Shown here piece by piece: positions 38,888-39,163 of a stretch of DNA of 64,000 nt (positions are counted from its first letter, which is position 1; each line of letters opens with the position of its first letter). Both the position numbers and the translations under genes were made by a program. This DNA is from Escherichia coli (GTDB taxonomy: Bacteria; Pseudomonadota; Gammaproteobacteria; Enterobacterales; Enterobacteriaceae), in the NCBI RefSeq assembly GCF_046105845.1, contig NZ_CP151004.1; one strand, 5' to 3'. The notes beneath the pieces are model-generated. The model saw only the letters and a program-made list of their open reading frames with translations, was not told the DNA's origin and ran no database searches.

Positions 38888-38906
38888 ATCAGCCTCCTTT
38901 TGCTTA

Positions 38907-38920
38907 ATTAGATATATCTA
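38907..38920. promoter_or_regulatory. Perfect palindrome TTAGATATATCTAA, candidate YqjI operator
   Basis: Lies 20 bp upstream of the yqjI start; a near-identical copy tttagatatatctga sits at 39126-39140 next to yqjH. Confidence 0.4.
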
Positions 38921-38987
38921 ATTTATATCTGATATGAGCATTACTGCAAGTACAAAAATGATTTTTAAACGTGGACTCATCTCACAA

Positions 38988-39025
38988 GTAGGCCGGATAA
39001 GGCGTTCACGCCGCATCCGCCAGCC
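38988..39025. repeat. REP element
   Basis: aggccggataaggcgttcacgccgcatccgccagc. Confidence 0.55.
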
Positions 39026-39087
39026 TTTCTACGACGTTGAATGTCTTCTCATACCTCAGATATATCAGTTCTACAAATCGCTTGCAT

Positions 39088-39116
39088 TTATCATGATTAA
39101 CAATCATTATCATTTA
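39088..39116. promoter_or_regulatory. Candidate Fur box in the yqjH promoter
   Basis: atcatgattaacaatcattatcatt resembles the Fur consensus GATAATGATAATCATTATC; about 50-75 bp upstream of yqjH. Confidence 0.45.
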
Positions 39117-39163
39117 CGAAATTTATTTAGATATATCTGATTACTATCACGAAGGCGATAACA

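Follow-up and report, generated by a model that had tools for sequence, protein, structure and literature searches.

The 276-bp spacer between nfeR (yqjI) and nfeF (yqjH) in this Escherichia coli sequence is very probably a divergent promoter and operator region, through which the two genes are controlled by NfeR and by Fur. It occupies positions 38888-39163 of the window, by which we mean the whole 64-kb stretch of DNA that was analysed. This reading draws on the anatomy of the spacer, the non-random occurrence of its palindromes, its identity with K-12 at the main elements and the conservation across genera of the operators, the -35 hexamers and a combined Fur/-10 block. Repression by NfeR, its relief by nickel, Fur control and communication between the binding sites are taken from the literature, as it is represented by titles and citing articles. 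The exact -35 and -10 assignments, and the geometry with which each site would block RNA polymerase, are what we infer. The control region itself is already known: the switch, with its two YqjI sites, its Fur site and its REP (repetitive extragenic palindromic) element, was studied experimentally in K-12 between 2011 and 2014. The additions made here are minor, and include a REP found only in Escherichia, an 11-bp tandem within the operator next to nfeR (site II), a rare short allele of the spacer, a variable NfeR tail and possible steps in operator spacing.

The nfeR-nfeF locus and its published control

The two genes flanking the spacer are divergent. On the minus strand, nfeR is an ORF of 207 aa (38264-38887) encoding a PadR-family repressor, and on the plus strand nfeF is an ORF of 254 aa (39164-39928) encoding a siderophore-interacting NADPH ferric reductase. 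The first-pass annotation, which had described a 276-bp divergent intergenic region between yqjI and yqjH, is borne out by the ORF coordinates, and its gene names by the RefSeq orthologues, which share the gene neighbourhood and are nfeR (labelled a DNA-binding transcriptional regulator/repressor) and nfeF (labelled an NADPH-dependent ferric-chelate reductase). The gene order, aer-nfeR-nfeF-ileX (tRNA-Ile)-mug, is that of K-12, and the amino acid identity to the K-12 proteins is 99.5% for NfeR and 97.6% for NfeF. Of 5426 complete E. coli genomes, 5421 match both genes over their full length and annotate them as nfeR and nfeF. The best E. coli match across nfeR-nfeF is only 99.0%, so the lineage of the window is sparsely sampled. 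At the protein level, residues 67-136 of NfeR match the Pfam PadR family (PF03551) with 56.6 bits against a cut-off of 27, and NfeF matches FAD_binding_9 (PF08021, 127.8 bits) and SIP (PF04954, 89.9 bits), which makes it a ferric reductase of the SIP/ViuB type. Among solved structures, the closest relatives of NfeR are ordinary PadR proteins (E = 6e-9); there was none of NfeR itself and none spanning its N-terminal tail. The Shine-Dalgarno sequences read from the DNA are GGAGG for nfeR (38893-38897, minus strand) and AAGG for nfeF (39152-39155, plus strand); in the orthologue alignment CTCC is mostly kept at the former and GAAGG is kept at the latter.

Several features surround this core. A tRNA gene on the minus strand (39985-40057; Rfam tRNA, 73 bits) lies just 3' of nfeF and corresponds to K-12 ileX, tRNA-Ile(CAU). 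The convergent aer/nfeR gap (38159-38263) measures 105 bp here versus 153 bp in K-12, and contains a partial REP-like match at 38200-38224 (naRNA4 model, 22 bits, E = 0.41). A 68-aa ORF at 38934-39140 was rejected as a gene; it crosses the REP, and its frame is broken by an 11-bp allele difference.

A dual Fur/YqjI metal-responsive switch acting on a ferric reductase had also been proposed from the sequence, and this matches the published system as far as titles and a citing article describe it. By its title, the work of Wang, Wu and Outten (J Bacteriol 2011) concerns Fur control of yqjH; the later paper by Wang et al. (J Bacteriol 2014) announces, also in its title, that the sites bound by YqjI in the yqjH-yqjI spacer communicate. 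In an article citing both (PMC7981267), nfeF is described as repressed by the product of the adjoining gene, NfeR, and as relieved of this repression by excess nickel; the metal sensed by YqjI is thus reported there as nickel, not iron. The same article gives an 85-fold increase of nfeF upon deletion of nfeR in Klebsiella. Two further articles place nfeF (yqjH) in the Fur regulon or describe it as Fur-controlled (PMC9501238, PMC9508795), and our literature search turned up no ChIP-exo results for Fur at yqjH. When PepA, an aminopeptidase and DNA-binding protein, was examined by genomic SELEX, it bound a single place in the K-12 genome, namely the nfeF/nfeR spacer (PMC8249747).

Operators, promoters and the Fur block

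Each end of the spacer carries an operator centred on AGATATATCT, and both match K-12. Next to nfeR, TTAGATATATCTAA forms a perfect palindrome at 38908-38921, whose symmetry continues without a mismatch over 18 bp, AATTAGATATATCTAATT (38906-38923); next to nfeF, TTAGATATATCTGA at 39127-39140 departs from it by one mismatch. The perfect palindrome adjoining yqjI and the near-copy adjoining yqjH that the first-pass annotation had claimed are therefore both present. Site II (38906-38933) consists of AATTAGATATATCTAATT and a second unit, TTTATATCTGAT, 11 bp away, and is hence an 11-bp tandem (TATATCTAA-NN), of which most Enterobacter spacers have three units. Site I (39124-39143) is an imperfect palindrome, TATTTAGATATATCTGATTA, with TTAGATATATCTGA inside it, and both sites are the same in K-12. 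The 2014 study reportedly describes an extended footprint at site II, which the tandem fits, and internal deletions that disturb regulation.

It could be argued that the palindromes do not serve as operators and are AT-rich repeats that arose by chance or were left by a local duplication. The spacer is indeed AT-rich, and when up to three mismatches are allowed the window contains two matches to the palindrome where 1.22 are expected, an unremarkable excess. At up to one mismatch, however, the 64 kb again contain two matches, both in the spacer, against 0.01 expected, and none of 100 shuffles reaches two; the 9-mer AGATATATC gives five strand-hits in the 64-kb window against 0.18 expected, all within the spacer. 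Comparison with other genera bears on the same point. A protein-similarity scan with one genome per species yielded 32 loci from Escherichia, Citrobacter, Enterobacter, Lelliottia, Superficieibacter and Raoultella, and the divergent pair is found in all 31 that reach far enough upstream. Across 34 aligned spacers from these six genera, GATATATCTAA of site II is invariant, GATATATCTAA-NN-TATATC is invariant or nearly so, and TT[A/C]GATATATC of site I is invariant, as is AATCATTATCAT in the Fur/-10 block; the remaining conserved blocks are a TTGCA hexamer on each strand and the ribosome-binding sites, and no alignment is possible in the middle of the spacer. The first-pass annotation had named conservation of the palindromes across Enterobacteriaceae as one check on its reading, and their cores passed it, invariant between diverged flanks. 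The title of the 2014 paper, moreover, names YqjI binding sites in this spacer. An origin by chance or duplication, to which we attach next to no probability, thus appears to be effectively refuted by conservation, and we treat the palindromes as operators in what follows.

Two further repeats were considered and set aside. A third operator-like copy, TCAGATATATCAGT (39056-39069), which contains AGATATATC at 39058-39066 and was missing from the first-pass list, lies about 15 bp upstream of the predicted nfeF -35. It is present in the short Escherichia alleles, in E. albertii and in Escherichia sp. E1V33, and was rejected as a conserved third operator, being decayed to TAGACATATCAGT in the K-12-type allele (45% of genomes) and replaced in other genera. 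Site II is flanked by a perfect 11-nt inverted repeat, GCTCATATCAG / CTGATATGAGC (38882-38892 / 38929-38939), that includes the nfeR start codon. An mRNA hairpin formed by these arms over the start codon is unlikely: the changes seen in E. albertii are not compensatory, and the hairpin would not be transcribed, because its upstream arm falls between the predicted nfeR -35 and -10.

Promoters were assigned from conservation and from a published compilation (PMC3946193), because the candidate -10 hexamers TATAAA and CATTAT deviate from consensus and a simple sigma-70 promoter and terminator scan returned neither a promoter nor a terminator at its thresholds in the spacer. On the nfeR strand, TTGCA(G/A/T)-16 nt-TATA(A/G)(A/T) is conserved, with the palindrome directly after it. 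In the window this corresponds to a predicted -35 TTGCAG (38944-38949, minus strand; TTGCAA in K-12, with the GCAA columns conserved) and a predicted -10 TATAAA (38922-38927, minus strand) inside the second site II unit. The K-12 yqjI promoter is listed as TTGCAA-16-TATAAA, and RNA polymerase holoenzyme binding is recorded in the nfeR/nfeF spacer of K-12 (PMC3946193). Upstream of the nfeR -35, the AT-rich motif ATGATTTTTAAA (38958-38969), of which TGATTTT recurs at the corresponding place in spacers of Citrobacter, Raoultella and Superficieibacter, is possibly an UP element. On the nfeF strand, an invariant CTTGCA stands 17 nt from CATTAT (39105-39110), the predicted -10 within the Fur block; the predicted -35 is TTGCAT (39082-39087, plus strand), where CTTGC is invariant in the 34 spacers. 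This promoter would place site I at about +10 to +24. Outside Escherichia, the nfeF -35 is preceded by TATC and an A6 tract, AAAAAA(RNR), an element that resembles a proximal UP subsite. Another predicted K-12 nfeF promoter, TTAACA-18-TTTTAT (PMC3946193), would set the nfeF -10 directly against site I.

The Fur-box-like block (39088-39114), the same in K-12, spans the nfeF promoter spacer and, as the spacer alignment suggests, the predicted -10. It contains the inverted heptamers of the 7-1-7 Fur motif TGATAATNATTATCA: the best match, TAACAATCATTATCA at 39098-39112, has two mismatches and is the only one in the window at this level, and a second match at 39088-39102, with three mismatches, overlaps it. 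The 19-mer Fur consensus GATAATGATAATCATTATC, by comparison, has no match at up to three mismatches in the 64-kb window, and in a scan of the orthologous spacers its best alignment has 5-6 mismatches. Of the Fur-box-like sequence claimed earlier, the block and its 7-1-7 match therefore stand and the fit to the 19-mer is poor, and from these matches we would rate it a moderate Fur box.

The invariant AATCATTATCAT could be conserved as a -10 element instead of, or besides, a Fur site. In the strictest form of this argument, AATCATTATCAT is kept solely as the nfeF -10 and discriminator and Fur acts on nfeF indirectly; the weak match to the 19-mer consensus speaks for it, as does the predicted -10 CATTAT inside the block, 17 bp from the invariant TTGCA. 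It has to contend, however, with the best 7-1-7 match in 64 kb and the overlapping second one, with conservation over at least 12 columns, more than a hexamer needs, and with literature that places yqjH in the Fur regulon and Fur as its transcription regulator (Wang 2011, by its title; PMC9501238, PMC9508795). We regard a purely promoter-based conservation as very improbable and keep direct Fur control of nfeF as the preferred reading.

Put together, these elements suggest the following model. NfeR, a PadR repressor with a His/Cys-rich metal-binding tail, would bind two operators centred on AGATATATCT, one near each gene. Bound to site II (38906-38933), it would cover both the predicted nfeR -10, which is part of the tandem's second unit, and the probable start point within the palindrome, and so repress its own gene. 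Site I (39124-39143) would follow closely on the predicted nfeF promoter. Separately, nfeF would be repressed by Fur-Fe(II) bound to the box (39088-39114) that covers the promoter spacer and the -10. Low iron would then lift repression by Fur, and excess nickel repression by NfeR, and either would raise the level of the NADPH ferric-siderophore reductase. The REP would sit between the two predicted back-to-back promoters.

The REP, spacer alleles and operator spacing

A REP in the middle of the spacer had been claimed as well, and a single element is present at 38988-39026 on the plus strand. Its segment GCCGGATAAGGCGTTCACGCCGCATCCG (38992-39019) recurs at 24433-24460, with 0 such matches expected in the window; its hairpin reaches -18.8 kcal/mol (z = -2.9 vs shuffles), and it matches the REP-derived Rfam family naRNA4 below threshold (33 bits, E = 0.0014). 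This REP-related match apart, Rfam gave no riboswitch or sRNA family in the spacer. The REP part of a query was found in several places per genome in 5425 E. coli genomes, with a median total of nine places per genome, and the element, a GC-rich imperfect palindrome that is extragenic and multicopy, can be classed as a REP on these properties.

All Escherichia spacers examined contain the REP, and E. albertii and Escherichia sp. E1V33 are no exception. None of the 28 genome spacers from Citrobacter, Enterobacter, Lelliottia, Superficieibacter and Raoultella has it, nor do the metagenome spacers from outside Escherichia; in these other spacers the centre is AT-rich, at 24-34% GC. By this distribution the REP would be an Escherichia-only insertion and no conserved part of the switch. 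The opposing argument makes it an integral, selected part that regulation requires, say as a bend or as the binding site of a protein. Its retention in every Escherichia spacer examined, those of E. albertii and Escherichia sp. E1V33 included, can be cited in support, and in the 2014 study REP mutations reportedly reduce YqjI regulation. Against such a role, operators and promoters are conserved in other genera despite the absence of the REP (the 28 genome spacers and the metagenome), and the distance between operators, 219 bp in Escherichia, exceeds the commonest value in Citrobacter and Raoultella, 184 bp, by about one REP length, as fits a passenger insertion. Repression by NfeR is also strong (85-fold) in Klebsiella, a genus whose spacer lies outside our sample (PMC7981267). 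On balance an integral role is unlikely, and we favour insertion of the REP within Escherichia.

The same part of the spacer distinguishes the window from K-12. Relative to the K-12 yqjH-yqjI region (Wang 2011, 2014), both operator sites, the Fur block, both Shine-Dalgarno sequences and the core of the REP are identical here, and so are both -35 hexamers save for one base in that of nfeR. The spacer is a short allele of 276 bp, compared with 287 bp in K-12. The difference resides next to the REP, in some 45 bp that are replaced and 11 bp shorter in the window; the polymorphic segment adjoining the REP is at 39021-39057, where the K-12-type allele has its replacement, 11 bp longer. The third AGATATATC copy is intact in the window and decayed in K-12. 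Among 5426 complete E. coli genomes, an exact 48-nt query covering the patch and this third copy (about 39022-39069) occurs in 54, and the K-12-type patch in 2463. E. coli has two main spacer alleles, differing by exactly 11 bp, and the short form is probably ancestral, because it is common to E. albertii and Escherichia sp. E1V33.

For operator spacing, a metagenome DNA-pattern scan was added, which brought the total to 113 loci with a bona fide nfeR adjoining site II. Even a 20-base pattern of the nfeF promoter still yields chance matches at metagenome scale: about one-fifth of its matches were unrelated, in coding regions of other organisms (e.g. L049, L071, L078, L134). The distances between site II and site I in the 113 loci fall into classes of 63, 96-98, 120, 166, 171-175, 179, 181-185, 217-219 and 230 bp. 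In a periodogram of these nine classes, the maximum is at 11.0-11.1 bp (R = 0.64), with a Monte Carlo p of 0.13 when the period is scanned from 10.0 to 11.6 bp and of 0.03 at a fixed 11.0 bp.

One interpretation makes the operators interdependent, with NfeR at sites I and II bridged by a DNA loop that the REP or AT-rich spacer would form, so that the sites must stay an integral number of helical turns apart. Communication between YqjI binding sites within the spacer, which the 2014 paper announces in its title, points in this direction, as do the periodogram peak of the 113 loci, the difference of exactly 11 bp between the main E. coli alleles and the same 11 bp between the units of site II. 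The p-value is only 0.13 once the period is scanned, however; two of the classes, 166 and 179, do not fit the phase, there are few classes in all and they are not phylogenetically independent, and the sample was partly collected by the site I pattern. We therefore do not treat helical phasing as an established result and keep it as a lead: the spacing data are compatible with a loop between the sites and fall short of establishing one, and bridging by NfeR is a tentative possibility to which we would give somewhat less than an even chance. If NfeR does loop the spacer, steps of about 11 bp would be expected (63, 97, 120, 174, 184, 219 and 230), and the REP would have been inserted in Escherichia alone and, with a length of about three turns, would have left the phase unchanged.

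Some loci have unusual arrangements. In two metagenome contigs (L044, L066) and in L035, site II lies only 63-65 bp from site I and abuts the nfeF -35, and because of this short distance their divergent promoters must overlap. In three metagenome contigs (L136, L152, L108) the step between site II units is 10 bp rather than 11 (CAGATATATCTATTTATATCTAA); two of these (L136, L152) encode an almost tailless NfeR (MRHATSADGGHRRQRFFGHG) and belong to the out-of-phase spacing class of 179 bp.

The NfeR tail and likeness to known systems

The N-terminal tract of YqjI is as rich in His and Cys as had been noted from the sequence: codons 1-47 of nfeR (38747-38887, minus strand) encode 12 His and 7 Cys, and the 60 residues ahead of the conserved GELR motif have 13 His and 7 Cys. 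Across genera (loci L003-L034), this tail ranges from 15 to 88 aa with 0-10 Cys, and not one Cys column is conserved among the tails. Only His60 and His77 are invariant, and conservation is good in the PadR and C-terminal domains. The tails of Escherichia have 59-60 aa with 12-13 His and 7 Cys; those of Citrobacter, which carry HEGCC-type repeats, have 37-88 aa with 8-20 His and 3-10 Cys, those of Raoultella 38-51 aa with 8-10 His and no Cys, and those of most Enterobacter and of Lelliottia 15-17 aa with 3 His and no Cys. Cysteines in the tail are therefore confined to Escherichia and Citrobacter, Raoultella and some Enterobacter have His only, and in most Enterobacter and Lelliottia the tail is down to MRHEHEGGGRR. 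Our literature search found no later paper on the YqjI cysteines.

Given so variable a tail, the nickel response may be lineage-specific and the operator and promoter architecture ancient. The nickel-sensing tail might then be an evolutionarily labile, repeat-expanding module, and this might go together with an operator distance that changes in steps of about 11 bp as a result of NfeR looping; as a joint proposal this is speculative, and we hold it to be rather doubtful. To our knowledge, the readings of a labile tail and of stepped spacing both go beyond published work. The comparative data could guide work on how a PadR repressor gains and loses a metal-sensing tail, and the site II tandem, the genus-specific REP and the possible quantised spacing are leads on how two operators might act through a DNA loop.

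The nfeR-nfeF region shares features with three kinds of known system. PadR-family repressors such as B. subtilis PadR and L. lactis LmrR bind inverted repeats as dimers, and NfeR likewise combines a winged-helix PadR domain (67-136) with a palindromic operator; whereas those repressors sense a phenolic acid or a drug, NfeR has a His/Cys-rich N-terminal extension and responds to a metal, nickel according to the literature. As at Fur-repressed iron-acquisition promoters, an AT-rich box with overlapping 7-1-7 matches lies over the spacer and predicted -10 of an iron-assimilation gene; unlike at the usual Fur promoters, nfeF has a second, nickel-responsive repressor downstream of the box, and the match to the 19-mer is weak. 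Finally, like araC-araBAD, deoR and gal, nfeR-nfeF has paired similar operators, here 63-230 bp apart, that flank back-to-back promoters, and its sites are reported to communicate (Wang 2014, by its title), as in those looping pairs; in contrast to them, looping by NfeR is a proposal, for which the helical-phase signal is not significant.
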